From: Acidobacteriota bacterium
GTDB taxonomy: Bacteria > Acidobacteriota > UBA4820 > DSQY01
Reading direction: 5' to 3'
Assembly (NCBI GenBank): GCA_040758175.1
Contig: JBFLVU010000002.1
Location: forward strand, 1 to 39,834
Length of the DNA: 39,834 nucleotides
Shown: one piece after another, positions 2,261-36,366 of the stretch
How the letters are laid out: every line of letters begins with the position of its first letter
Position numbering within the stretch: the first letter of the stretch is position 1
Translations under genes and position numbers: made by a program
Notes under the pieces: model-generated
What the model saw: only the letters and a program-made list of their open reading frames with translations
Databases searched by the model: none
What the model was told of the DNA's origin: nothing

Positions 2261-3622
2261 TCAGTTCCTCAGGGACGTTATGGGCGCCGGGATCACGCCG
2301 CCGCGGCCCACGAATCCGGAGCAGGAGAGCGTGCGGATCTCCTGGATGGGGGCGTCGCCGAGGAGTCCCCCGAAGGAGACCAACTCCCCCACCCGCTTCC
2401 CGTAGGCGGGGATGACGCGAACGGCGGTCGTCTTGTGGTTGACGATGCCGATGGCGAGTTCGTCTGCGATGAATCCGGCCAGGACGTCTTCCTCCACGTC
2501 CCCCGGAACGGCCACCATGTCCAGCCCCACGGAGCACACGCTGGTCATGGCCTCGAGCTTCTCCAGGGAGAGGTGCCCCTCGCGGGCCGCGGAGATCATG
2601 GTGGCATCCTCGCTGACCGGGATGAAGGCTCCCGAGAGTCCGCCCACGGCGGATGTGGCCATGGCCCCGCCCTTCTTCACGGCGTCCGTGAGAAGCGCGA
2701 GGGCCGCCGTGGTCCCGCACGCGCCCACGCGCTCCAGTCCCATGGCTTCCAGGACTTCCCCCACCGAGTCGCCGAGTTCGGGGGTCGGGGCCAGGGAGAG
2801 GTCCACGATCCCGAAGGGGACGCCCAGGCGGCCCGCCACCTGACGGCCGATCAGCTCGCCCACCCGTGTGATTTTGAAGGCCGCCCGCTTGATGACCTCT
2901 TCGAGGGCCCGCAGGTCGCAGGAACCCGCCCTCTTGATGGCCTCGCAAACGACCCCCGGGCCGCTCACGCCCGTGTGGATGACGACCTCCGGGAGCCCCA
3001 CCCCGTGGAAGGCCCCCGCCATGAAGGGATTGTCCTCCACGGCGTTGGCGAAGACGACGAACTTGGCGCAGCCGATGCTACCCGATTCCCTCGTCCGGTA
3101 GGCCGTGTCCTTGAGGAGGCGGGCCACGGTTCGCACGGCGTCCACGTTGAGCCCCGTCCGGCTGGAACCGGCGTTTACGGAGGAGCACAGGCGCGAGGTG
3201 GAGGAGAGGGCCTCGGGGATCGAGGAGAGGAGGGCCCGGTCGGCGTCCGTGAAGCCCGCGTGGACGAGGGCCGAGTACCCGCCCACGAAGTCGAATCCCA
3301 TCTCCGACGCGGCCCGGTCTATGGCCCGGGCGATCTCCAGGTAGGCCGACGGATCGCATCGGGTGCTGATCAGGGACACGGGCGAGATGGACAGGCGGCG
3401 GTTGGCCACCCGGATCCCCAGGTCGTCTGCCGTGGCGTTGACGGCGGCCGGGAGCGGAGAGGCGATCCGCTTCAGTTTTTCATACACTCGGCTGGCGGCC
3501 TCGCTCGGATCCGGATGGGCGCAGTCCAGCAGACTGATGCCCAGGGTCACGGTCCGGACGTCAAAGTGCTCCAGCTCGGTCATCCGAAGGGTTTCGAGGA
3601 TTTCGCGCCGCGTGTAGGTCAT
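2261..3622 (-). CDS. UPF0210 / DUF711 (PFL4705-like) family protein, 453 aa
   Basis: MTYTRREILETLRMTELEHFDVRTVTLGISLLDC... with the typical ~450-aa length and the ending ...GGVIPAPITSLRN matches my recollection of the UPF0210 family. Lies immediately downstream of an ACT-domain UPF0237-like gene, which is the conserved pairing. Confidence 0.85.
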   Translation of the reverse strand: MTYTRREILETLRMTELEHFDVRTVTLGISLLDCAHPDPSEAASRVYEKLKRIASPLPAAVNATADDLGIRVANRRLSISPVSLISTRCDPSAYLEIARAIDRAASEMGFDFVGGYSALVHAGFTDADRALLSSIPEALSSTSRLCSSVNAGSSRTGLNVDAVRTVARLLKDTAYRTRESGSIGCAKFVVFANAVEDNPFMAGAFHGVGLPEVVIHTGVSGPGVVCEAIKRAGSCDLRALEEVIKRAAFKITRVGELIGRQVAGRLGVPFGIVDLSLAPTPELGDSVGEVLEAMGLERVGACGTTAALALLTDAVKKGGAMATSAVGGLSGAFIPVSEDATMISAAREGHLSLEKLEAMTSVCSVGLDMVAVPGDVEEDVLAGFIADELAIGIVNHKTTAVRVIPAYGKRVGELVSFGGLLGDAPIQEIRTLSCSGFVGRGGVIPAPITSLRN

Positions 3623-3650
3623 CGCATTCGCTCTCCGCGCCCGATCAGCG

Positions 3651-4073
3651 TCAGACCCGGTTCACGGCGCGCATCATGTCCTCGTACTGCACGAAGACCA
3701 GGACGCCCACCTCTTCCCCGCGCCGCTTGAGGGAGGCCCTCAGATCTTCGAAGGAGACCGGGGAGCCCGAGGGATCCAGAATCATCATCATGGCGAAGTT
3801 CCCGTGTACCAGGGTCTGGTTGATGTCCACGATGTCCACGGAGAGCTCCGCGAGGACCTCGGAGAAGGCGTGGACGATGCCCGTGCGGTTCCGCCCCAGG
3901 GCCGTGAAGACCACGTGGCGCGCGCCCGGACCTTCCCGTTCCAGGAAGGGCTGGGATTCGAGAAGGCGGACCATGTCCGCAACGACCCCCTCGAGGGCCT
4001 CCCGGGAGGCCTCCCGGGGGAGGTGCCTAAGCACGATGTCCGATACGGCCACGGCCAGGGCTTCTCGGTCCAT
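3651..4073 (-). CDS. ACT-domain protein, UPF0237 family, with ~50-aa N-terminal extension (start uncertain)
   Basis: The C-terminal ~90 aa, ARHVVFTALGRNRTGIVHAFSEVLAELSVDIVDINQTLVHGNFAMMMILDP...VLVFVQYEDMMRAVNRV, is the UPF0237 ACT fold pattern. Family members are usually ~90 aa. The alternative start M34 (MVRLLES) would give 107 aa. Confidence 0.8.
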   Translation of the reverse strand: MDREALAVAVSDIVLRHLPREASREALEGVVADMVRLLESQPFLEREGPGARHVVFTALGRNRTGIVHAFSEVLAELSVDIVDINQTLVHGNFAMMMILDPSGSPVSFEDLRASLKRRGEEVGVLVFVQYEDMMRAVNRV

Positions 4074-4173: not shown

Positions 4174-4572
4174 ATGTTCGAGAACAAAATGGTGGTTCGC
4201 TTCAAGGACGGCGCAACGCTCTCCGGGTTCGGGGACAACTTCATGCCCGGAGAGACGGAAATCTTGATGCAGGACCTGGAGGAGCGGCTTCACAGGCTGC
4301 CGCTGTCGGGCGTGAAGATGGTCTGCTTCGTTCGGTCCTTCACGTCGGACTCGGGGGAGACGCACAGGATCCCCGGCCGGGTTCTCTACCAGCCCGTCCC
4401 GGGATCGCGCGTCAGGGTCTCCTTCCGGGACGGGGAGGTCCTGGAGGGGGTGTCCGCCGTGCGATCCCGCCCCAGGGCCGGGTTTTTCCTGACCCCTCTC
4501 AATCCGAACAGCAACAACCTCCACGTCTACGTGAACATGGACGAGGTGATCAGCTTTCGCTTTCTCGACTGA
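4174..4572 (+). CDS. Hypothetical small protein (132 aa) with an internal duplicated (V)xF(K/R)DG..L.G module
   Basis: Track ORF 3676..4572 trimmed to the ATG at 4174, which is preceded by GGAGGAGGA. Sequence is [20 protein letters not shown]... and ...[15 protein letters not shown]...[31 protein letters not shown]. The upstream part of the track ORF is antisense to the ACT gene. Confidence 0.6.
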
Positions 4573-7500
4573 GCCAGATCCTCTCCGGCCGAACCATGGG
4601 CGGAGTGAGGAAGAGTTTCATCCCCATGACGTCGGGCTGCTGGGGCACGATGCCCCGCGTGTGGTAGAGGAAGATGCACGGGGCGTCCTCGATGAGCATG
4701 TCCTCCGCCTTCCTGTACAGGTCCACCCGCTCCTCCGGGTTGAGGGAGCGCCGGGCCCGGTCCACGACCTCGTCGAACTGTGGATTCCGGTAGTGGACTT
4801 CGAGCACGTCCCCTCCCAACGAGTGGAAGAGGAAGTGCATGAAGGAGTCCGGATCGGGATAGTCGGCGTACCACCCCGTCGCGTACAGGGCGGGTTTTCC
4901 GCGCGTCTTCCTCAGGGCCTCGAAGGACTCGTGGCTCATGGGTTCCGCCTCTACCCTCACGTTCACGGCCCTGAGCATCTCGACGAGCACGGAAAACTCC
5001 TTGGCCTGCCTCACCCGGCTCGTATCCACGGGGACCTTCAGGTCGAGCCCCGATCCGAATCCGGCTTTCTGGAGCAGCCATTTGGCGCGTTCCGGGTCGT
5101 AGTGGAAGCCCCTTAGGTCTTGGCGGTACCCCAGGATGCCTGGGGGCAGGATTCCTCGGGCCGGGGTCGAGCGGGCGTGAACGTATTGGCCCACCAAAGA
5201 CTCCCGGTCAACGGCGAAGTTCATCGCTTGCCGGACCTCCTTCACGTTCAACGGGGCGAGGTCGTTGCGGATGCTCACAAAGATGGTGTTGAGGAGCACC
5301 GTGCTCTGGGTGTGGTTCTGCCAGAAGGGGTCCTGGAGAAGCCTTTCGACGGCATCGTTGGAGAAATTGGAAACCAAGTGGACCTGACCGCGCTTCAGCG
5401 CCGCATCCAGGCACTCCTCGTCCCGGCACGAGAAGTCGAAGACGACCCGATCCAGGTAGGGGACGCCGCTCTCCCAGTACCCCGAGAAGCGCTCCATCCT
5501 CACACGGTCCGGAGAGGCCTCGGCGACCGAGAAGGGGCCGCATCCCAGGGGCTTTACCAGGCGGAGCGTCTGCTCGTCGAAGGCCTCCCGGGGCATGACG
5601 GAGGCCTCGGGGTACGCCAGGAAGTACAGGAAGAAGGCAAGGGGCTCTTTGAGACGGACTTCCACCGTGCGGTCGTCCGGGGCGCTCAGGCCCGAGAGGG
5701 TCCTGGCCTTTCCTTCCACGTAGTCCTCTATCCCTTCCACCGGACCCAGAAAGGACTTTCCTTCGGACAGCAGTTTGGGTGAGGCCGCCCGGTGCCAGGA
5801 GTACAGGACGTCCGCGGATGTCACGGGCCGGCCGTTGTGGAACACCACACCGTTGCGCAGGCGGAATGTATACACCCGGCCGTCCGTGCTCAGCCGCCAC
5901 GATTCCGCGACGCCCGGGAGGACCTGGGTGCCCTGCCCTAGGCGGACGAGGCCCTCGCAGTAGGGATGGACCACCTCGTGGTCCCGGATGTTGTTGGCGA
6001 AGGCCGGGTCCAGGTGGTATTCGTAGGCCACCCCGCCCAGGCGAAGCTCGCCTCCCCGGCGGGCCTTCGGCAGCTGAAAGGACGTGAGTTCCTCCACGAG
6101 GATGAGGGACTCCTGCTTGAGGGCGGCCGAGGTGGCCGAGAGTTCCCGTGCGCCGTGGAGGTTCTGCTCGGCCGATCCCGAGATGGCGTCCATGGCGCCC
6201 ACGATCTGCTGGCCCGCCTGGGACATGCGGATCAGCGCCCTCTGGATGGCCTCCACGGAACTCCGGACCTGGTCCATGCCCTCGGCGATGGTGTTGCTTC
6301 CGCCGGCTTCCTCCTCCATGGCCCGGTCCACGTTGCGGGTCAGGTCCTTCATGACCTCGGAGCGTTTGCTGATGTGCCGCGAGGTCTGCGCCTGCTCGCG
6401 GGTGGCCGTGGAGATGCGCTCGATGCGTTTGGTCATCTCTTCGATGGCCGCGGTCACCTGTCGGCTGCCCTTGGCCTGCTCCGAGGCGGCCCGCGCGATG
6501 TGGCTGATGCTCGTGCCGGCCCCCTCGATGGCCTTTCCGATCTTTTGCAGGGTGGCCTCGGCGCTCTGTCCCAACCGGAGCCCCTCGTCCACCTTGACCA
6601 TGCCTTCCTGGGCCACCCGGCTCGCCTCCTCGACCTCCCGCTGGATGGTCTGGATGATGGTGGCCACTTCGCCCGTGGAGGCCGTGGTTCGCTCGCTGAG
6701 GTCACGGATCTCCTCCGCCACCACGCCGAAGGAACGCCCGTGCTCTCCCGCCTGCGCCGCGATGATGGCGGCGTTCAGGGCCAGGAGGTTCGTCTGGTCG
6801 GCGATGTCGCGGATCACCTTCAGGATTTTTCCGATGTCTCGGGACCTGTCCACAAGGGAATTCATGGCCTCCTGGTTCGTGGTCATGACGTTGTGAATGG
6901 TCGAAAGGGCCACCACGGTGTGCTTGACGGCCTCCTCCCCGGTTCGGGCCGTGTCGAGGACCTGCCGAGAAATCCCCTCGGTGTCCCGTATGTTCTCCTC
7001 GATTTGGCTGATGGTGGCGTCCATTTCGACCATGGCCGAGGAATTCTCGATGGCGAAGGAGGACAGGCTTTCCCCGTGGCCGGCCACCTCGTCGATGGAT
7101 CTGGACATCTCCTCGATGGAAGCGCTGATCTCATCCACCAGCGCCGACAGGCTGTGGGTAGCCCCGAGGACCTCCTCGATGGAGGCACGCATCTCCAGAA
7201 TGGCGCTGGAAGTCTTCTCGGTGAACCCGGAAAGGCCGTCCACGCTCTCCACGACCTTCTCGATCTCCCCTTCGAGGGAGGTGAGGGAGTGTCGGACGCC
7301 GGATACGGATTTCGCCTGATCCTCCGCTTCCGAGAAGAGCTGCTGGGCCTTCTCCGAGATGCGTCCCGAGGCTTCCGAAACCCCGGCCCCCGTGTCCTGG
7401 AGGTGCCCGATGATGCCCTGGAGCGAAGAGAGAACCCTTTTCAGTCCCGGAAATGCCTCCAGGACGCCCCGCGTGCTCGTGTCCTGGCCGACGTCCAGGC

Positions 7501-7732
7501 TCCCCGAAGCGATTCGGCGGAGGATGTCGTCCAGGTGTTCCTTGGAGTAGGACCTCTGCTGAAAAAGGAGCACGGCCGTCCCGAGGGCCCCCATGGCGCC
7601 CGACACGAGGATGAAGGCCCAGAACCGGCCGCTGAACGTGCCGGCGGGCAGGATGAGGCGGGCCAAAACGGCCAGCAGGGCCGCAGAGGCCACACCTCCC
7701 AGAATCACACTGCTCCAAGCGCGCCTCGCCAC
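4550..7732 (-). CDS. Fusion protein: 2-TM anchor + HAMP-like + methyl-accepting chemotaxis (MCP) signalling domain + C-terminal family-5 (OppA/DppA/NikA-type) solute-binding domain, 1060 aa
   Basis: GTG start at 7732 with AGGAGG 5 nt upstream. Two hydrophobic helices lie at about aa 8-27 and 37-57. MCP hairpin-tip motif [40 protein letters not shown] is at aa ~310-349. From aa ~560: [35 protein letters not shown]... and ...[13 protein letters not shown]..., classic SBP_bac_5 signatures. Confidence 0.85.
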
Positions 7733-7843
7733 GGACCCCTCCTACGACATACGTCACCATCCTAGGCAAGAGCCCCGGGGGTGTCAATTGAGGGAAAACG
7801 GCCGGGAGCCCCGAGGGGGCGGTTTTTGCTACAATGGCCTGCC

Positions 7844-23893: not shown

Positions 23894-25933
23894 TCAGCCC
23901 TCCGCACCCTCGAACCGAGGGGACGCGAACTGCGTGTGGTAGAGGTGGGCGTAAAGGCCTCCACTTTCGAGAAGCTCCGCGTGGGTCCCCCGCTCCGCGA
24001 TCCTCCCCTTGTGAAGAACCAGGATCTGGTCCGCGTCCTGGACGGTGGACAGGCGGTGGGCCACGACCAGGGCCGTCCGGCCCTTCAGGAGTTCCCCAAG
24101 GGCCTCCTGAATGAGGGACTCCGTCTTCGAATCCACGCTGGCCGTGGCCTCGTCCAGAACCAGGATGCGGGGCTCGGCCACGAGGGCCCGGCAGAAGGAA
24201 ACGAGCTGCCGCTCTCCCTGGGAGAGGACCGTCCCCCGTTCGTTGACCGAGAAATCCAGTCCCCCGGCGAGGCGCTCGACCACGGCGCCCATCCGGCTCG
24301 CGCCGAGGGCCGCATTGAGGCGATCCTCCGTCACCTCTTCCCTCAGGGTGACGTTTTCCCGCAGACTGCCGGCGAAGAGGAAGAGATCCTGTTGGACGAA
24401 GGCGAACCGCCGGCGGAGGGCGTGCACGTCCCACCCCTCCACGGGATGATCGTCCACCAGGATCCTTCCTCCCCCCTCCGGGAGGGGGTAGAAGCGCAGG
24501 AGGAGGGAGGTGAGGGTCGTCTTTCCCGATCCAGTGGGCCCTACGAGAGCCACGGTGCTTCCGCCGGGAACCTCGAAGGACACGTTTTTAAGGACCGGCT
24601 GCCCCTCCTCGTACGCAAAGGAGACGTTTTCGAAGACGATCGCCCCTCCGCCCTCCCCGGGAACGACGCCGCGACCCGGGTCCTCCTCGGGAGTATCCAG
24701 AATGCGGAAGAGGCGTTCGCTGGCCACCACGCTGCTCTGGATGATGTTGAACTTCTCCGCGAGGTCCTGCAGGGGCATGAAGAGCATCTTGAGGTAGATC
24801 AAGAAGGCCACGAGGGTTCCGATGCTCGCCCCTCCTCCAAGCACCTGCAGCCCTGCGTAGCCGACGACGAGGGCCACGGCAGCCGTGGCGAAGGCGTCGA
24901 TGAGAGGACGGAAGATCGCAAAAATGTAAATGAGGCGCATCTGAGTCCGGTAGTTCTCCGCACCGAGGTCGTGGAAGCGTTTCGAGGCACGCGCCTCGGC
25001 CGTGAAGGCCTTGAGGACGGAAACGCCTTGGACCGCCTCCTGGAGGAAGGTGTTGAGGCGCGCCAGCTGGACCCGCAGCTCGCGGTAGATCCTCTGGGAC
25101 CTCGATTTGAACCAAAGCGCCAGGAGGAACAGCGGTGGGGCGAGGAGCAGAAGGCGGGCCGCCAGACCTGCGTCCAGCGAGAAGAGGACCGCGAGGATTC
25201 CCGCGAAGAGTGCCACGTCGCTCACCGCCGTCGCCACAACCGAGGTGAAGAGTTCCGAGAGCGCCGCCGTGTCGTTCGTGAGCCGGGTGACCAGGCGCCC
25301 TACGGGGTTCTCGTCGAAGAACCTCACCGGAAGGCGGTGAAGGTGGGCGAAGAGTTCCCGCCGCATGCTCGCCACGGCCCTTTGTCCCAGATCATTCAGG
25401 CCGTACGTCACGCCGTAGCTGAGGAAGAAGTTCGCGACCAGAAGCCCCGCGTACAGGACCGCCAGAAGCAGCAGGCCCTCTCGCTGACCCTGAAGGACCT
25501 CCTTTCTGGCCTCGGGGTCCAGGGCGCCGAGTTCGGCCTCCGAGACGAATGCCCCCGAGGGAAGGCGGTGGTACCGCTCAGCGGTCAGAAGCCCGCGGAC
25601 CTTGAGCTCCTCGGAAAGAGCGCGCGGCAGATCCGCCGCCTCGACGAACGTCGCCTCTCCGACCTCCTCCGTGGCCCCCTTCGCCTCCCGCCTCAGGCGG
25701 AGCAGGAGGCCTTCGTCATCCGTTCGCACGGCCGCGTACGGGGGGAGGATGTGGGCATCCAGGCCCCTCCTGACGAGAAGCGGCAGCGAAAGCTCCACCC
25801 CGGCCTGGACGACCGAGACGGCCATGCAGACCCAGAGGAGCCAGGCCCGGCCCCGAACGTATCCCATGATGCGGGACCCGTGCCGTACGAGGGTGAAGGC
25901 CCCGAGTTTTTCCTCCTCGCGCCTCACCGCCAT
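23894..25933 (-). CDS. ABC exporter, fused permease/ATPase subunit (MsbA/MdlB-like), 679 aa
   Basis: Six-TM exporter domain, then Walker A GPTGSGKTT, signature LSQGERQ and Walker B ILVLDEATASVD. Carries a ~95-aa insertion between TM1 and TM2. Confidence 0.9.
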   Translation of the reverse strand: MAVRREEEKLGAFTLVRHGSRIMGYVRGRAWLLWVCMAVSVVQAGVELSLPLLVRRGLDAHILPPYAAVRTDDEGLLLRLRREAKGATEEVGEATFVEAADLPRALSEELKVRGLLTAERYHRLPSGAFVSEAELGALDPEARKEVLQGQREGLLLLAVLYAGLLVANFFLSYGVTYGLNDLGQRAVASMRRELFAHLHRLPVRFFDENPVGRLVTRLTNDTAALSELFTSVVATAVSDVALFAGILAVLFSLDAGLAARLLLLAPPLFLLALWFKSRSQRIYRELRVQLARLNTFLQEAVQGVSVLKAFTAEARASKRFHDLGAENYRTQMRLIYIFAIFRPLIDAFATAAVALVVGYAGLQVLGGGASIGTLVAFLIYLKMLFMPLQDLAEKFNIIQSSVVASERLFRILDTPEEDPGRGVVPGEGGGAIVFENVSFAYEEGQPVLKNVSFEVPGGSTVALVGPTGSGKTTLTSLLLRFYPLPEGGGRILVDDHPVEGWDVHALRRRFAFVQQDLFLFAGSLRENVTLREEVTEDRLNAALGASRMGAVVERLAGGLDFSVNERGTVLSQGERQLVSFCRALVAEPRILVLDEATASVDSKTESLIQEALGELLKGRTALVVAHRLSTVQDADQILVLHKGRIAERGTHAELLESGGLYAHLYHTQFASPRFEGAEG

Positions 25934-25961
25934 GGACCTTCCTCCAGGGCCCAGCGCCGCC

Positions 25962-27728
25962 TCATTCCCTCTCCATTTCCTGGAGTTCCACCATGTCCCG
26001 GTAGTACCCCTCTCGGTCCATGAGGTCGTCGTGGCGCCCCACTTGGACCACCCGGCCTTCCCGGAGGACGAGGATCAGGTCCAGGTCGCGCACGGCGCTC
26101 ATCCGGTGGCTCACCACGACGAGCGTACGGTCGCGGACCGCTTCGGCCATCCCCGCGAGGATCCGCCTCTCCGTATCGGCGTCCACGGCCGAGAGGGTGT
26201 CGTCCAGAACCAGGACGCTGGAGGGCTTCAGCAGGGCCCTCGCGAGGCAGAGCCGCTGTTTCTGGCCCCCCGAGAGGGTGATGCCCCGCTCGCCGAGGAG
26301 CGTGTCGTAGCCGTCGGGAAAGGCGGCCACTTCCTCGTGAAGGGCGGAGAGCCGGCAGGACTCCTCCATTTCCCCGCGCGTCGCGTCCTCCTTCCCCAAC
26401 CGGAGGTTCTCCGCGATGGTGTCGCTGAACAGAAAGGGCTCCTGGGGCACGTAGGCGATGGCTCGGCGGAGGTTCTCCGGATTCAAGCCCGCCACATCCT
26501 CCCCGTCCAGAAAAAGCGTTCCCTCGGGGGGCTCGTGAAGCCGGAGGAGGAGTTGGGCGAGCGTGCTCTTGCCTGATCCCACCTCGCCCACCAAGCCCAG
26601 GGAGCCTCCCGGCGAGACGGCAAAGCACACGTCTCGGAGAGCGGGCCCCCCGGCCCCGGGGAAAGCGAAGGTAAGGCCCCTCGCCTCCAGTCCGCCCCGG
26701 CGCCCCTCGCCGGAGGGCACCGGGCGTCCCGACCCCTCCGCGTCGCGCTCGGCGAAGAGTCCGTTGATGCGGTCCATGGATGCGGCGGCCCGCTGGGTAA
26801 GGCTGAGCATCCACCCCGCCGCGATCATCGGCCAGGTGAGCATGCCGAGGTAGGAGGCAAAGGCCACGAAGGAGCCCACGGACGTGTTCCCCGAGAGGAC
26901 ACGGCCGCCGCCCACGGCCAGCAGGATCGCCACGCAGGAACCGGCCAGGAGGAGGACGGCGGGGTGGAAGACGGCGTCCACCCGCACGTACTTCAGGGTC
27001 TTGGCGAAGACGTCCGCGTTGTACCGCTCGAAGTCCGCGAGGTCGGAGTGCCCTCGGTCGTAGGCCCTCAGCACGCGCATCCCGGCCACCGATTCCCGGG
27101 TCTTCTCCGTCAGGGCCTCGAAGGATGCCTGGACCGCGTCCCACCGGTCGTAGATGGCCTTCAGCGACACCGCCATGAGCCCCGCGAGGAAGGGAAGGGG
27201 CAGGATGGTCCACAACGCCAGAACGGGGTCTAGGAAGAGCATCGCTCCGATGGCGACGAGGGCGTACACCGAGGCGTCGAAGCCCGCGACGAACCCCATG
27301 GCGAGGGCCTGGCGCACCGACTCGACGTCGTTGCTGGCTAGGGCCAGGAACTCCCCGGTCCGGGTCCGCTGGAAAAACCGTGTGGACAAGGTCAGCGCGT
27401 GGTCGAGGATCCGGTTCCTGAGGTCCAGCTCCGCCTGGCGCGCCAGGGAAAAGAAGAAGTGCCTCCAGAGGAACCGGAACAGGGCGATGACCAGCGCGAG
27501 AAGGAGGAGGAGGAAAGAGCCCCGGAGGATGATCCCGCGCGTGGCGGCGCCGCGGGCCAGGCCGTCCACGACGTGCCTGACGACCAGCGGGATCGCGAGC
27601 TGGGCCCCGTCCACCACGAGAAGGCAGAGGATTCCCAGGGCGGCGCGGGCGCGGTGCCGCCACAGGATGGCCAGGATGTCCCGGACTCCCTTCTTCACGG
27701 CGCACTCCGGCGGTCCATCATAGTCCAT
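25962..27728 (-). CDS. ABC exporter, fused permease/ATPase subunit (partner of 23894..25933), 588 aa
   Basis: Trimmed from 28169 to the ATG at 27728 (MDYDGPPECAVKKGVRDILAILWRHRARAALGILCLLVV...). Walker A GEVGSGKST, signature LSGGQKQR and Walker B VLVLDDTLSAVD are present. Its stop lies 28 nt before the partner start. Confidence 0.9.
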   Translation of the reverse strand: MDYDGPPECAVKKGVRDILAILWRHRARAALGILCLLVVDGAQLAIPLVVRHVVDGLARGAATRGIILRGSFLLLLLALVIALFRFLWRHFFFSLARQAELDLRNRILDHALTLSTRFFQRTRTGEFLALASNDVESVRQALAMGFVAGFDASVYALVAIGAMLFLDPVLALWTILPLPFLAGLMAVSLKAIYDRWDAVQASFEALTEKTRESVAGMRVLRAYDRGHSDLADFERYNADVFAKTLKYVRVDAVFHPAVLLLAGSCVAILLAVGGGRVLSGNTSVGSFVAFASYLGMLTWPMIAAGWMLSLTQRAAASMDRINGLFAERDAEGSGRPVPSGEGRRGGLEARGLTFAFPGAGGPALRDVCFAVSPGGSLGLVGEVGSGKSTLAQLLLRLHEPPEGTLFLDGEDVAGLNPENLRRAIAYVPQEPFLFSDTIAENLRLGKEDATRGEMEESCRLSALHEEVAAFPDGYDTLLGERGITLSGGQKQRLCLARALLKPSSVLVLDDTLSAVDADTERRILAGMAEAVRDRTLVVVSHRMSAVRDLDLILVLREGRVVQVGRHDDLMDREGYYRDMVELQEMERE

Positions 27729-27781
27729 TGGGAACGCCGTGGGGTGAGCGGATTGTTCCAGGGGGGAGCGCCCCGCCCAGA

Positions 27782-28507
27782 TTACTTGGCCATCTTGTCG
27801 GAGGAGCCCTGCTTCAAAGGTCCTTGCGGCGGGGGGATCACGAGGGGCGAAAAGAACCACTCGCTGTACTTCGACGCGCCGCGGTACTCCACGAAGGAGC
27901 GGTCCTCGAGGCGGCAGTACACTCCCAGAATGGGCTGGCCCTCTTTTCCGTCGATCCGGAAGGGGAGAACCTTGTTTTTTCCTCCGGGAGGACCCTGCCC
28001 CCCCCGTCCTGCGCCCGTCGTCCCTCCCGTCCCTCTCGAGGCCCCCGAGCCCTGGGGCGGCGCGGTCGTGGTGCCGGCGCGTGTGGCGGTTCCCCCCTGG
28101 GGCGTGTACACGGTCTTCCCGTTCTCGTCCACGGAGACCACCGTCGTGCCGGGAGCCAGGAGCGACCACTTGCCTTCGGGGTCGAAGGGGTTACGGTAGA
28201 GCCGGCGGATGTACCGCCTGCGCTTGGGGCCCTCCTTGAGGAGGTCCTCCAGCCGCGTCGGGAAAGTCCCCGCGTGTTCGGTCTGGTACAGACGAATGGC
28301 TTCCGTGTACTCCTCGCCCCGGAAGATCAGTTCCTGCTCGTTCTCGCGCTTGGCCACGATGGAGGCCGGCTGGACGGCGGCCATGAGCATGACGGCCAGG
28401 ATGAAGAGCCCCACGAGAACCCAGATGAAGACCACGCCGCGCTCGCCACTGGCCCGGGTGGCGGCGGACGTCGATTCCGGTCTTCCATCACTCCCGAAGA
28501 GGTGCAC
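27782..28507 (-). CDS. Atypical pseudopilin-like protein (no Glu at +5), 241 aa
   Basis: GTG start with AGGAGAAGGGAG upstream. N-terminus ...ASGERG/VVFIWVLVGLFILAVMLMAAV resembles a prepilin helix. YTEAIRLYQTEHAGTFPTRLEDLL is a GspG-like motif. Gly/Thr-rich stretch, then KYSEW shared with the two neighbouring pseudopilins. Confidence 0.6.
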   Translation of the reverse strand: MHLFGSDGRPESTSAATRASGERGVVFIWVLVGLFILAVMLMAAVQPASIVAKRENEQELIFRGEEYTEAIRLYQTEHAGTFPTRLEDLLKEGPKRRRYIRRLYRNPFDPEGKWSLLAPGTTVVSVDENGKTVYTPQGGTATRAGTTTAPPQGSGASRGTGGTTGAGRGGQGPPGGKNKVLPFRIDGKEGQPILGVYCRLEDRSFVEYRGASKYSEWFFSPLVIPPPQGPLKQGSSDKMAK

Positions 28508-34725: not shown

Positions 34726-36366
34726 TCAATCTTCTACGAACGTCACCTTGTTGATCTCCTTCAGGGTGGTCTGCCCGGAGAGCAAGACCCTGACGGCCGA
34801 CTCGCGCAACGTGACCATACCCTCCTCCCGCGCCGCCTTCTTGATCTCGCTGGACGGCTTGCGGTCGATGATGAGCTCCCGGATGCGGTCGGAGAGTTCC
34901 AACAGCTCCGAGATGGCCATGCGCCCCCGGAAACCCGTGCCGTTGCAGTCCAGGCAGCCGATTCCCCGGTAGAGCTGGGCGCCGGCGGCCAAATCGGGCG
35001 GTATCCGGTTGTCCACCAGGAGTTCCCGCGGGTACGTCACGGCTTCCCGGCACGACGGGCAGATCCGGCGCACCAGCCGCTGTGCCAGGACGCAGTTCAG
35101 GGCCGAGACGAAGTTGTAGGGCTCCACCTTCATGTTGAGGAAGCGTCCGAGTACGTCCACCACGTTGTTGGCGTGAACCGTGGTGAAGACCAAGTGCCCC
35201 GTGAGCGCGGACTGGATCGCGATGTTGGCCGTTTCCTCGTCGCGGATCTCCCCCACCATGATCTTGTCCGGGTCGTGCCGGAGGATGGACCTCAACCCCC
35301 GGGCGAAGGTGAGCCCCTTTTTCTCGTTGACGGGAATCTGGGTCACCCCGCGGAGCTGATACTCGACCGGGTCCTCGATGGTGATCATCTTGTACTCGGC
35401 CGACTGGATCTCCGAGAGGACGGCGTACAACGTCGTGGTCTTGCCGGATCCGGTGGGGCCCGTGACGAGGAGCATGCCGTAGGGCTCGTTGGCGTGGCGG
35501 CGAATCCTCCTCATCACCTCCGGCTCGAACCCCAGAACGTCGAGGCTCAGGTTCTTGAACTCCTCGCTCGTGGACTCCTTGTCGAGGATCCGGATCACGC
35601 AGTCCTCGCCATGGATCGTGGGAATGACGCTCACCCGGAAGTCGACGGTTCGGCCCTTGATCTTGAGCTTGAACCGCCCGTCCTGGGGCACCCGCTTTTC
35701 GGCGATGTCCAGCTCGGCCATGACCTTGATGCGCGAGATGATGGTGGCGTGAAAACGTTTGTCGATGGGATCCATGGCGGGGTAGAGGACGCCGTCGATC
35801 CGATACTTGATGACGACCTCCGTCTCTCCCGTCTCCACGTGTATGTCGCTGGCCCTCCGCTGAAGGGCGTTGAACACGGTGAAGTCCACGAGCTTGATGA
35901 TGGGCGACGTGTCCTCGGAGAGCTTGTCAATGGAGATGACCCCCTCCTCGCCCTCCTCCGCATCCTCCCTGACGATCTGGATCCGGAAGTCTTCGCTCAC
36001 CTCCTCCAGGACGCGCTGGCTCGATTCGGACTTCTTCAAAACGTCCTGGATCTCGCTCCGGACTCCCACGAAGAGGCGGAGAGGCCTCTTCATGAGGGCC
36101 TCCAGTTCGTCGATCATGGTAACGTCCGAGGGATCGGCCGCCACAACGGAAAGGAACGCGCCCTCCTCCCGGTAGGGGACGAAGGTGTAGCGAAACATGA
36201 GGTCCACCGGAATGGACAGGAAGAGCGCCGTGTCCACCCTGAAATCCTTCAGCGAGATGAAGGGGAGCCGCAGCGACTCGGCGAGGCGCCGCGCGCTTTT
36301 CTCCTCGTTCAGGAGCTCCCCGTCCGTGGGGAGCCGGGAAGTGAGTTCACCGGGCGACGCGGCCAT
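34726..36366 (-). CDS. gspE: GspE/PilB-family secretion ATPase with N-terminal T2SSE_N domain and tetracysteine zinc motif
   Basis: Walker A GPTGSGKTTTLYA; Asp box/Walker B MITIEDPVEY...KIMVGEIRD; His box LTGHLVFTTVHAN; CPSCRE...CLDCNGTGFRGR. The N-terminal ARRLAESLRLPFISLKDF... domain is present. Confidence 0.93.
   Translation of the reverse strand: MAASPGELTSRLPTDGELLNEEKSARRLAESLRLPFISLKDFRVDTALFLSIPVDLMFRYTFVPYREEGAFLSVVAADPSDVTMIDELEALMKRPLRLFVGVRSEIQDVLKKSESSQRVLEEVSEDFRIQIVREDAEEGEEGVISIDKLSEDTSPIIKLVDFTVFNALQRRASDIHVETGETEVVIKYRIDGVLYPAMDPIDKRFHATIISRIKVMAELDIAEKRVPQDGRFKLKIKGRTVDFRVSVIPTIHGEDCVIRILDKESTSEEFKNLSLDVLGFEPEVMRRIRRHANEPYGMLLVTGPTGSGKTTTLYAVLSEIQSAEYKMITIEDPVEYQLRGVTQIPVNEKKGLTFARGLRSILRHDPDKIMVGEIRDEETANIAIQSALTGHLVFTTVHANNVVDVLGRFLNMKVEPYNFVSALNCVLAQRLVRRICPSCREAVTYPRELLVDNRIPPDLAAGAQLYRGIGCLDCNGTGFRGRMAISELLELSDRIRELIIDRKPSSEIKKAAREEGMVTLRESAVRVLLSGQTTLKEINKVTFVED

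Follow-up and report, generated by a model that had tools for sequence, protein, structure and literature searches.

A predicted membrane-anchored chemoreceptor of Acidobacteriota with a solute-binding domain fused behind its signaling bundle

The stretch of DNA analyzed here (the window, identical with a contig of 39.8 kb in full) carries a gene in which an MCP signaling domain is followed, in the same reading frame, by a family-5 solute-binding protein (SBP) domain. This raises the question of whether the two halves belong together at all and, if they do, on which side of the membrane the binding domain lies and what such a protein might sense and control.

Distribution of the fusion gene

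Domain searches of the 1060-aa translation found MCPsignal and then SBP_bac_5 in one protein, and the ORF, the Pfam and NCBIfam matches and the homologs all indicate that the single frame noticed in the preliminary description is one genuine gene, beginning at a GTG codon. It is predicted to have a promoter-like site and a strong Shine-Dalgarno sequence of its own (table 1), which we count in favor of the chemoreceptor reading. At NCBI, its homologs bear the name "ABC transporter substrate-binding protein," which is misleading because no importer genes accompany the gene or its homologs.

Table 1. Features of the fusion gene and its upstream region (window coordinates).
Feature	Coordinates	Strand	Basis
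Whole fusion gene, 1060 aa + stop (2TM, putative HAMP, long MCP bundle, SBP_bac_5)	4550..7732	(-)	ORF list and translation, Pfam/NCBIfam matches
Promoter-like site TTGACA-17-TAGGAT	7759..7787	(-)	Consensus scan, 10/12 positions; pattern match alone
Shine-Dalgarno AGGAGG, 5 nt 5' of the GTG start	7738..7743	(-)	Read off the sequence; strong
TM helix 1, aa ~8-30, Arg-Arg at N-terminus	7643..7711	(-)	Hydropathy scan; kept in family alignment
TM helix 2, aa ~37-58	7559..7624	(-)	Hydropathy scan and family alignment
Putative divergent HAMP, aa 59-105, motif A-x-G-x-L	7418..7558	(-)	hhalign vs HAMP of unfused relatives
N-arm of bundle, aa 106-327, ~32 heptads	6752..7417	(-)	No indels in 44 sequences; unbroken heptad phase
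Hairpin tip motif (38 residues), aa 312-349, tip Glu 330	6686..6799	(-)	Invariant in family
C-arm of bundle, aa 331-554, 224 aa = 32 heptads	6071..6742	(-)	Indel count, heptad phase, comparison with unfused relatives
E446-Q447 in a 10-residue motif, best candidate methylation pair; Q447 invariant	6392..6397	(-)	Motif scan and column conservation
Junction/linker F552-Q-L-P-K-A-R-R-G560-G561	6050..6079	(-)	Family alignment
Complete cluster-C SBP_bac_5 domain without signal peptide, aa ~560-1060	4553..6055	(-)	Pfam, PDB sequence matches, Foldseek
R906, candidate clamp residue	5015..5017	(-)	Alignment; role inferred
D957	4862..4864	(-)	phmmer alignment to 1DPP; invariant column

Nothing beyond the unusual architecture itself suggests that separate MCP and SBP genes have been joined by an assembly error or a frameshift. 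A database survey found the fusion across Acidobacteriota and Myxococcota: it stands in an uninterrupted frame in all 24 sampled genomes of the source organism's family, it occurs in about 54 of the 401 sampled genomes of the phylum Acidobacteriota, and homologs with as much as 96% and as little as ~30% identity keep it in its full length. Carriers belong to Acidobacteriota, Thermoanaerobaculia, Aminicenantes, Blastocatellia, Corallococcus, and Myxococcaceae, and those in Myxococcota (Corallococcus sp. and a Myxococcaceae isolate) are cultured organisms. Dozens of independent assemblies, complete chromosomes among them, show the same frame, the junction motif without variation, and a constant distance of 726–733 aa from tip to C-terminus. 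These uninterrupted frames rule out a mis-join or frameshift at ~6050–6090, the danger raised in the preliminary description, and leave an artefact with a negligible chance. Judged by its homologs, the protein is a real and widely conserved acidobacterial chemoreceptor.

The junction is well defined in the family alignment, which comprises 44 full-length homologs: F552, G560, and G561 are invariant and P555 is present in at least 90% of the sequences (pattern F-x-L-P…G-G), and distant members conserve the linker better than both of its flanks. Only 5–8 residues separate the bundle helix from the SBP domain, which is fused exactly where unfused long-bundle MCPs stop.

Signaling bundle and membrane anchor

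The Pfam MCPsignal model matches aa 282–435 (E 5.6e-44, 150.5 bits vs a cut-off of 34.6) and is found in all 44 family members. The MCP coiled coil and the hairpin tip motif quoted in the preliminary description are indeed present, and no segment of the fusion protein is better conserved than the tip, with its 81% mean pairwise identity. Across the 44 sequences not a single indel occurs in aa 106–562; the two arms are of equal length (224 + ~224 aa), the heptad phase is unbroken along both, and conservation peaks and Gly hinges mirror each other around one single tip. Judged from sequence, the bundle would have a straight 2×32-heptad geometry. A weak second MCPsignal match might suggest two signaling modules, or a "double hairpin," a possibility that we rejected for this family given the single tip peak, the mirrored conservation and the continuous heptad phase; the same weak match is also seen in unfused relatives. 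AF2 was judged an unreliable guide to bundle topology, as its two monomer models disagree: the chain turns at the tip in the full-length model, whereas the bundle-only model has no DSSP break there, and fails to superpose on solved MCP hairpins (50–70 Å rmsd to 2CH7).

The tip deviates from the usual consensus (E to I and R to Q), which had been taken to suggest a role outside chemotaxis. This interpretation is not supported, the deviation being a fixed signature of a whole class of otherwise ordinary long-bundle MCPs. An identical 13-residue tip segment occurs in unfused Cache/4HB/HAMP MCPs whose C-terminus lies exactly 224 residues (32 heptads) past the tip Glu, and the same 224 aa separate the tip Glu from the linker in the fusion. 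The source genome encodes three unfused long-bundle (64H-type) MCPs, and an unfused MCP with the same tip is encoded there in one operon with CheW. By sequence comparison the altered tip is the mark of a long "64H-type" MCP class and not of degeneration, the class (64 heptads, 32 per arm, in the Alexander and Zhulin classification) being assigned here by residue arithmetic. The 64H class is among the MCP heptad classes listed in MiST3 (PMC6943060); the Geobacter che paper contains no mention of "64H." Unfused 64H-type MCPs of Deltaproteobacteria and Acidobacteriota resemble the fusion in their tip motif, in a C-arm of 224 residues and in a HAMP that is putatively homologous to the fusion's own segment, but they carry periplasmic Cache/4HB sensors and end where its linker starts. 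Besides the best candidate methylation pair of table 1, the motif scan yielded E207-E208 and E431-E432, and the candidate pairs are conserved.

A hydropathy scan of the whole 1060-aa protein detected two hydrophobic segments and none beyond aa 58, in agreement with the earlier observation of two TM helices whose connecting loop is too short for a periplasmic sensor. The protein would be a receptor without an outside (periplasmic) sensor, its periplasmic part reduced to this loop of ~7 residues; P29 is conserved in at least 90% of the family. The segment that follows, previously called HAMP-like, resembles HAMP in profile–profile comparison, in which hhalign aligns aa 59–105 in the same register with the Pfam-HAMP-positive segment of unfused relatives (95.7% probability, E 1e-8), but Pfam HAMP PF00672 matches 0 of 44 fusion family members at E≤1.

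The solute-binding domain and its location

The C-terminal part was described at the outset as a complete OppA/DppA-type SBP_bac_5 domain from aa ~560, and on this point Pfam, NCBIfam, PDB, and Foldseek agree. Pfam SBP_bac_5 matches aa 604–972 (E 3.3e-76, 257 bits), NCBIfam models of the OppA/DppA/GsiB/NikA kind span aa ~573–1038, with a weak SgrR match at aa 602–753, and sequence matches in the PDB include 8UPI (2.5e-61) and DppA (7e-50). Foldseek gives a TM score of 0.85 to liganded OppA and to 8UPI over ~515 columns, which corresponds to a complete bilobal fold, and the domain is conserved as strongly as the arms of the bundle.

A sensor for peptide, nickel, or opine had been proposed. The first of these is favored, as the nearest solved relatives are peptide binders, D957 is invariant and R906 is conserved, whereas nickel and opine ligands, the less probable choice, score below peptide binders. 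D957 aligns with Asp408 of DppA, a peptide-clamp residue, and is a candidate for the same role. R906, present in 39 of 44 sequences, lies two residues off the position aligned with DppA Arg355; the Arg355 column itself shows no conservation in the fusion family, in which only this neighboring Arg is kept, and R906 is a candidate carboxylate-clamp Arg.

No signal peptide or lipobox was found on the SBP domain, which starts at aa ~560 straight after the cytoplasmic helix, and no Opp/Dpp-type permease or ATPase genes lie beside the fusion gene or beside the homologs examined. About 20 species possess a fusion subfamily devoid of TM segments and signal peptide, with the same tip-to-C-terminus distance. 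Because no further hydrophobic segment exists and because this soluble subfamily does, the SBP domain is, from its sequence context, cytoplasmic and C-terminal to the signaling domain, as the preliminary description had it; the scan revealed no additional TM segments. The contrary view, in which the SBP domain is exported, for example by an unrecognized C-terminal translocation, and works in the periplasm as part of an ordinary outside-sensing receptor, would fit the extracytoplasmic location of all characterized transport SBPs of family 5 and the N-terminal hydrophobic segments of the nearest stand-alone relatives (Gemmatimonadota, Myxococcales). It is nevertheless very improbable given the lack of hydrophobic segments past aa 58, the short linker that ties the domain to a cytoplasmic bundle helix, and the version without any TM segment or signal peptide in those species.

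Pathway, mechanism, and alternatives

That no che genes lie nearby holds for the entire contig, and none adjoins the fusion in any context examined. As a hint at function this absence is uninformative: the full Che set is found elsewhere in the source genome, with one CheA and two clear CheW genes on other contigs, and with CheR, CheB, and CheY. CheW is present in all ~54 sampled fusion carriers versus 52% of the other sampled genomes, a co-occurrence on which the pathway assignment rests and which was counted among related, non-independent genomes. A type IV pilus cluster is located on the same contig (28.5–37.7 kb), and FlhA (flagellar export) was not found in the source genome, a 355-contig draft. 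The neighbors of the gene in the source genome are RelA/SpoT, DUF6982, ACT, and DUF711. When flanking ORFs from 53 loci were clustered, the conserved neighbor sets were clade-specific only (EamA-like, ECF sigma/anti-sigma, polyprenyl synthase), included no che gene and had none in common with the source locus. The adjacency to RelA/SpoT, considered as a functional clue, was discarded because it is not conserved; ACT and DUF711 recur downstream only in close Acidobacteriota relatives.

The reading that we prefer, with a probability of about 0.65, is that of a membrane-anchored long-bundle chemoreceptor that senses a cytoplasmic peptide-like ligand through its C-terminal Venus-flytrap SBP domain. 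We infer the type of ligand, the direction of signaling, the coupling to CheA, and the output as follows. The short linker, if rigid, would join the SBP domain to the end of the C-arm of the signaling hairpin. Since the hairpin runs back toward the membrane, a receptor dimer would have its pair of SBP domains next to HAMP, where the four-helix bundle is closest to the membrane. The ligand would be a small cytoplasmic molecule that bears a free amino group and, probably, a carboxylate that is free as well; candidates are di- or tripeptides that come from proteolysis or from the uptake of peptides, glutathione, and murein peptides. On binding to the SBP domain it would close the flytrap. Closure would alter how the helices pack at the bundle's top, acting via the C-arm as HAMP does via the N-arm, and the change would reach the tip and modulate the single CheA of the genome through CheW, while CheR and CheB would adapt the receptor at its EE/EQ pairs. 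Since the search turned up no flagellar export gene, the output would most likely be a type-IV-pilus-based behavior or another nonflagellar function. A broader proposal is possible but should be held only tentatively: the end of the C-arm might be a second, general input port of MCP bundles, at which a Venus flytrap drives the kinase-control tip from the helix opposite to that used by HAMP, so that Acidobacteria and some Myxococcota would steer pilus-based behavior according to how large their internal peptide pool is.

Two other readings accept the architecture and the location but assign the protein a different role. The SBP domain may be a protein-interaction or tethering module in a receptor that still signals through CheA/CheW, for instance by clamping the free N-terminal tail of a partner (an adaptation enzyme, another receptor, or a transporter subunit) or by tying receptors to one another where the array is nearest to the membrane. 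The invariant peptide-clamp residue D957 would suit the free N-terminus of a protein as well, and the conserved TM hairpin loop and linker would fit partner contacts; yet no conserved partner gene adjoins the fusion across clades, the entire bilobal fold and the cleft motifs are kept as in transport SBPs for small peptides, and use of a cytoplasmic SBP5 domain as a sensor has a precedent in SgrR (PMC13060122). We regard this role as unlikely. Still less likely is a chemoreceptor-like protein decoupled from CheA/CheW, a regulator or scaffold outside chemotaxis, as the preliminary description suggested, in which some other output would receive the ligand state of the SBP domain. MCP-like regulators with other outputs reportedly exist, che genes are missing beside the fusion, and two residues of the tip differ from the E. 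coli consensus, at positions of trimer-contact residues in Tsr. Against decoupling speak the identity of this tip with that of unfused MCPs with normal sensors, including the one in an operon with CheW, its rank as the most conserved segment, the conserved candidate methylation pairs, and CheW in every sampled carrier.

The inverted architecture described at the outset is not without precedent, as several proteins share parts of it. In Helicobacter pylori, TlpD carries a C-terminal CZB domain on its MCP bundle. Azospirillum Tlp1/Aer similarly has a C-terminal PilZ domain (PMC13401364). Both resemble the fusion in having a cytoplasmic ligand-binding domain appended to the C-terminus of an MCP bundle, but their domains are small, bind zinc or c-di-GMP, and sit on bundles of other heptad classes, with no Venus-flytrap SBP. 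DcrH of Desulfovibrio vulgaris, an MCP with a C-terminal hemerythrin domain (PMC13401364), is likewise a transmembrane MCP whose cytoplasmic sensor follows the signaling domain, where the C-arm ends close to the membrane; it differs in having a periplasmic domain and, as its sensor, a small O2-binding hemerythrin of four helices, instead of a minimal loop and a bilobal SBP of ~500 aa. SBP_bac_5 proteins also have links to chemotaxis and to cytoplasmic sensing. Escherichia coli Tap mediates dipeptide chemotaxis through periplasmic DppA, an SBP_bac_5 peptide binder (PMC8050422), but there a separate SBP docks in trans on the periplasmic domain, whereas here it is fused, cytoplasmic, and at the other end of the molecule. 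SgrR/DsvR transcription factors use a cytoplasmic, C-terminal SBP_bac5 domain as their sensor (PMC13060122); their output is an HTH DNA-binding domain, and the SBP domain studied here is far nearer to OppA/DppA-type transport binders. The combination of a long-bundle MCP with a C-terminal cytoplasmic SBP_bac_5 domain appears to be undescribed, and none of the papers found to mention both chemoreceptors and SBP_bac_5 describes a fusion.

Input to chemoreceptors is pictured almost wholly as running from the periplasm through TM2 and HAMP to the N-arm, and the present family would be a natural system in which to study control of the four-helix bundle through the other of its helices. It would also add cytoplasmic sensing, within a major signaling family, to what "periplasmic" binding proteins are known to do. 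The database name under which these fusions are filed hides them from chemoreceptor censuses, and the cultured carriers, Corallococcus sp. and the Myxococcaceae isolate, make the idea testable. For Acidobacteriota, an abundant yet little-studied soil phylum, the family points to internal sensing of peptides or metabolites; if the proposal of a second input port is true, it would amount to a metabolism-coupled "peptide taxis" in nonflagellated soil bacteria.

Architecture of the fused receptor

The receptor gene encodes a chemoreceptor (MCP) carrying a solute-binding protein (SBP) domain at its C-terminus. Pfam places MCPsignal at aa 282–435 (E 5.6e-44) and SBP_bac_5 at aa 604–972 (E 3.3e-76), and the NCBIfam OppA, DppA, GsiB, SapA and NikA models match aa ~573–1038; together with the reading frame and hydropathy, these matches recover every feature that the preliminary description had listed for this gene. 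A Kyte-Doolittle scan of the whole protein found only two hydrophobic segments, at aa ~8–30 and ~37–58, joined by a loop of ~7 residues, and none after aa 58. The Arg-Arg at the N-terminus and the R/K residues after TM2 fit an N-in, C-in hairpin. Because no hydrophobic segment follows aa 58, because the SBP domain begins 5–8 residues past the helix that ends the cytoplasmic bundle, and because a soluble subfamily of homologs, without TM segments, lacks any export signal, the SBP domain is cytoplasmic and C-terminal to the signalling domain, as initially proposed. It is also a complete mature SBP, aligning to residues 22–488 of 8UPI (E 2.5e-61) and 36–491 of DppA (E 7e-50). Its AF2 model (pLDDT ~85–90) resembles liganded 8UPI, OppA and DppA (TM 0.82–0.85) more than open forms (0.66–0.70).

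The tip of the bundle had been described as deviating from consensus. The E to I and R to Q changes are indeed present, but the motif is invariant across the fusion family and identical in dozens of ordinary MCPs with periplasmic dCache, sCache or 4HB domains and HAMP, retrieved by the same protein search; three further MCPs of the same genome carry this class of tip. The ordinary MCPs end exactly 224 residues (32 heptads) past the tip Glu. With the tip Glu at residue 330 and the end of the C-arm (the helix following the tip) at ~554, the fusion again has 224 residues in this arm; its N-arm, which runs from the end of HAMP (~106) up to the tip, has the same length. The bundle is thus predicted to have the arithmetic of the 64H class, which is listed in MiST3 (PMC6943060). 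Since the tip changes are shared with unfused MCPs ending 224 residues after the tip Glu, we read them as a class signature, not decay. The Pfam HAMP model matched none of the 44 family members after TM2; a profile of this segment aligned in the same register with the HAMP segment of the unfused relatives, which have the same tip class, a periplasmic sensor and no SBP domain (95.7% probability, E 1e-8, 68 columns). The shared tip, C-arm length and HAMP alignment point to a long-class receptor whose periplasmic sensor has shrunk to a loop and whose SBP domain was added where its relatives end.

We also considered that the bundle might comprise two hairpins. A weak second MCPsignal match does occur in the N-arm, and the unfused relatives give the same match. 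Against this reading, the family alignment has one dominant conservation peak, the tip (aa 311–350), the secondary peaks at aa 221–250 and 411–450, both holding EE/EQ pairs, are mirrored about residue 328, and the heptad phase, taken from hydrophobicity averaged over the family, shifts by no more than about one heptad position over aa 110–545, its amplitude collapsing at the tip only. The 44 sequences show no indel from aa 106 to 562, and conserved glycines lie ±55–65 residues from the tip, resembling a glycine hinge. The AF2 full-length monomer turns at 327–329, whereas the bundle-only model runs through this point unbroken, and its fit to 2CH7 has an rmsd of 50–70 Å; as the two monomer models disagree, AF2 was disregarded for bundle geometry. 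The reading with most support is one long hairpin, possibly with flexible joints 106 or 152 residues away from the tip on either side.

Bundle and SBP domain meet at F552-x-L-P-x-x-x-R-G560-G561, in which all members share F552, G560 and G561 and at least 90% have P555. In comparisons with the six most distant members, identity is 58% in the linker, against 26–27% in the arms and 33% in the SBP domain. A conserved joint of fixed length suggests mechanical coupling across the junction and not a loose tether, and argues for one origin of the fusion, the Myxococcota and soluble forms included.

Distribution of the fusion

A protein search returned ~44 full-length homologs (1041–1078 aa, 96% to ~30% identity), all annotated with MCPsignal and SBP_bac_5, from sources including Acidobacteriota and Thermoanaerobaculia MAGs, Corallococcus sp. 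ZKHCc1 1396 and a Myxococcaceae isolate with a complete 8.4-Mb genome. In a scan with the C-arm end plus SBP domain (one genome per species), we inspected the best 80 of 568 relatives. About 45 of these 80, mostly Thermoanaerobaculia plus Aminicenantes and gp7, had two TM segments, tip and SBP domain, with a constant 726–733 residues from tip Glu to C-terminus; ~20 (Blastocatellia and others) were proteins of ~1020–1040 aa without TM segment or signal peptide, and the Gemmatimonadota and Myxococcales matches were ordinary 520–540-aa SBPs with an N-terminal hydrophobic segment.

A mis-joined or frameshifted gene could produce such a fusion artificially. We surveyed 401 genomes sampled over the phylum with a 290-aa query across the junction. 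Matches ran through the junction in uninterrupted frames of ~1030–1216 aa in all 24 sampled genomes of the window's family, in 3 of 4 genomes of the sister family and in ~54/401 overall (at least 12 families), a breadth that rules out an artefact and bears out the view of a single genuine gene. The fusion is a real, conserved chemoreceptor.

One junction-spanning match, in the complete genome G182 (contig C1, 921665–922480), contains two TAA stops in a 728-aa frame and may be a pseudogenised fusion. SBP_bac_5-like segments of the same subfamily also lie within giant frames of 1.8–2.3 thousand residues in several Acidobacteriota genomes (G155, G010, G083, G057, G084, G180, G388 and others), and a 1389-aa homolog (P0048) combines SBP_bac_5 with AAA_22 and AAA_16. 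Acidobacteriota thus seem to employ this "periplasmic" domain repeatedly, in further signalling proteins that are large and probably cytoplasmic.

Genomic context and chemotaxis partners

Genes and sites around the receptor gene and on other contigs (C30, C46, C52) of the same genome
Feature	Position	Strand	Remarks
Fusion (receptor) gene	4550..7732	-	single ORF, 1060 aa, GTG start
Promoter-like site TTGACA-17-TAGGAT	7787-7759	-	pattern match upstream of fusion gene
Shine-Dalgarno AGGAGG	5 nt before fusion GTG start	-	read from sequence
DUF6982 gene	4183-4572	+	Pfam E 5e-24; convergent, 23-nt overlap with receptor 3' end
ACT_6 + DUF711 (UPF0210) pair	2261-4073	-	immediately downstream of receptor gene
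Two adjacent fused TMD-NBD ABC exporter genes	23894-28169	-	ABC_membrane + ABC_tran
PilB-type ATPase	34726-36366	-	N-terminal MshEN, Pfam E 7e-17
Operon: secreted ABC_sub_bind-type protein, long-class MCP with periplasmic domain, CheW	C52, 6343-10016
Two paralogous MCPs	C46, 925-3507 and 6315-8942		~860-875 aa
MCP with canonical IEAARAGE tip	C30, 14998-17331 region		495 aa

With its own promoter-like site and Shine-Dalgarno sequence, a convergent neighbor downstream and a divergent relA/spoT upstream, the fusion gene is a self-standing transcription unit. The DUF6982 gene sits between it and the ACT_6/DUF711 pair. In a 50%-identical Acidobacteriota homolog's locus, this pair (L015 13183–14962) directly follows the receptor on the same strand; it is absent downstream of the receptor in the Thermoanaerobaculia and Myxococcota contexts examined.

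The absence of che genes near the fusion, noted initially, extends to every context examined; in this genome (2.85 Mb, ~99% complete) they lie elsewhere. They comprise one CheA with Hpt, dimerisation, HATPase and CheW domains, adjoined by a CheY-type receiver gene (assigned by eye from sequence), a cluster encoding CheW, a Response_reg protein (Pfam), a repeat-rich 736-aa protein, CheR and CheB, and a second CheW whose gene adjoins that of a long-class MCP. The operon on C52 is a conventional in-trans SBP/receptor arrangement, coexisting with the fused cytoplasmic SBP. Among the five MCP genes, the C46 paralogs have large hydrophobic N-terminal regions and a variant long-class tip, NASIIAAGAGEHG, whose Glu is followed by exactly 224 residues. 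Only the C30 MCP has the canonical tip; after it come a CheW-like match, very weak at E 8e-4 and short of the Pfam cut-off, and a gene for a CheY-type receiver. As only one CheA was found, it would have to serve long-class and canonical-tip receptors alike, whose bundle lengths differ greatly, unless the assembly lacks a second CheA.

CheW-domain genes occur in all ~54 fusion carriers against 182/347 other genomes of the phylum sample, a co-occurrence that is consistent with partnership but not proof of it, since the sampled relatives are not independent. FlhA was not found in a search of the ~99% complete genome. The window holds genes for a pilin, PilMNOP-like proteins, a secretin, PilC and a PilB with MshEN, a c-di-GMP-binding module; the two ABC exporter genes lie directly upstream of the pilin/secretin cluster.

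Candidate ligand, mode of action and precedents

Among proteins of solved structure, the closest relatives are all binders of peptides or of ligands resembling amino acids: 8UPI (aminoserine), DppA, OppA, HbpA/GbpA (glutathione), GsiB/YliB and MppA/DppE (murein tripeptide). Nickel and opine binders rank lower in sequence and structure matches. D957 is invariant and aligns with DppA Asp408, which clamps the peptide alpha-ammonium group in the DppA-Gly-Leu structure. Family members vary at the column matching DppA Arg355, but R906, two residues on, occurs in 39/44 of them. Mean pairwise identity is 0.50 for the SBP domain and 0.51 for the bundle arms. The likeliest ligand, on these similarities, would be a short peptide, or else a related metabolite that carries an amine. 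Binding of such a cytoplasmic, peptide-like ligand may close the SBP flytrap and, via the C-arm, alter how the bundle packs at its membrane-proximal end, beside HAMP; this change could reach the tip and modulate CheA through CheW. The receptor would be adapted by CheR and CheB, and its output might be pilus-based or another non-flagellar behaviour.

The elements of this arrangement have precedents. TlpD bears a C-terminal cytoplasmic CZB sensor domain on an MCP. The same placement is seen in DcrH and Tlp1/Aer, with hemerythrin and PilZ domains, respectively (PMC13401364), and SgrR/DsvR use a cytoplasmic SBP_bac5 sensor domain (PMC13060122). In the Tap-DppA and TlpB-AibA systems, in contrast, separate periplasmic SBP_bac_5 proteins feed the chemoreceptor in trans (PMC8050422), whereas the SBP domain described here is cytoplasmic and covalently attached. 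In the literature searched, we found no MCP described as carrying an SBP_bac_5 domain fused to its C-terminus. The NCBI name of these proteins, "ABC transporter substrate-binding protein", fails on two family-defining features, export and a permease operon. The chemoreceptor is probably functional, and its family is approachable by experiment through the cultured Myxococcota that carry it.
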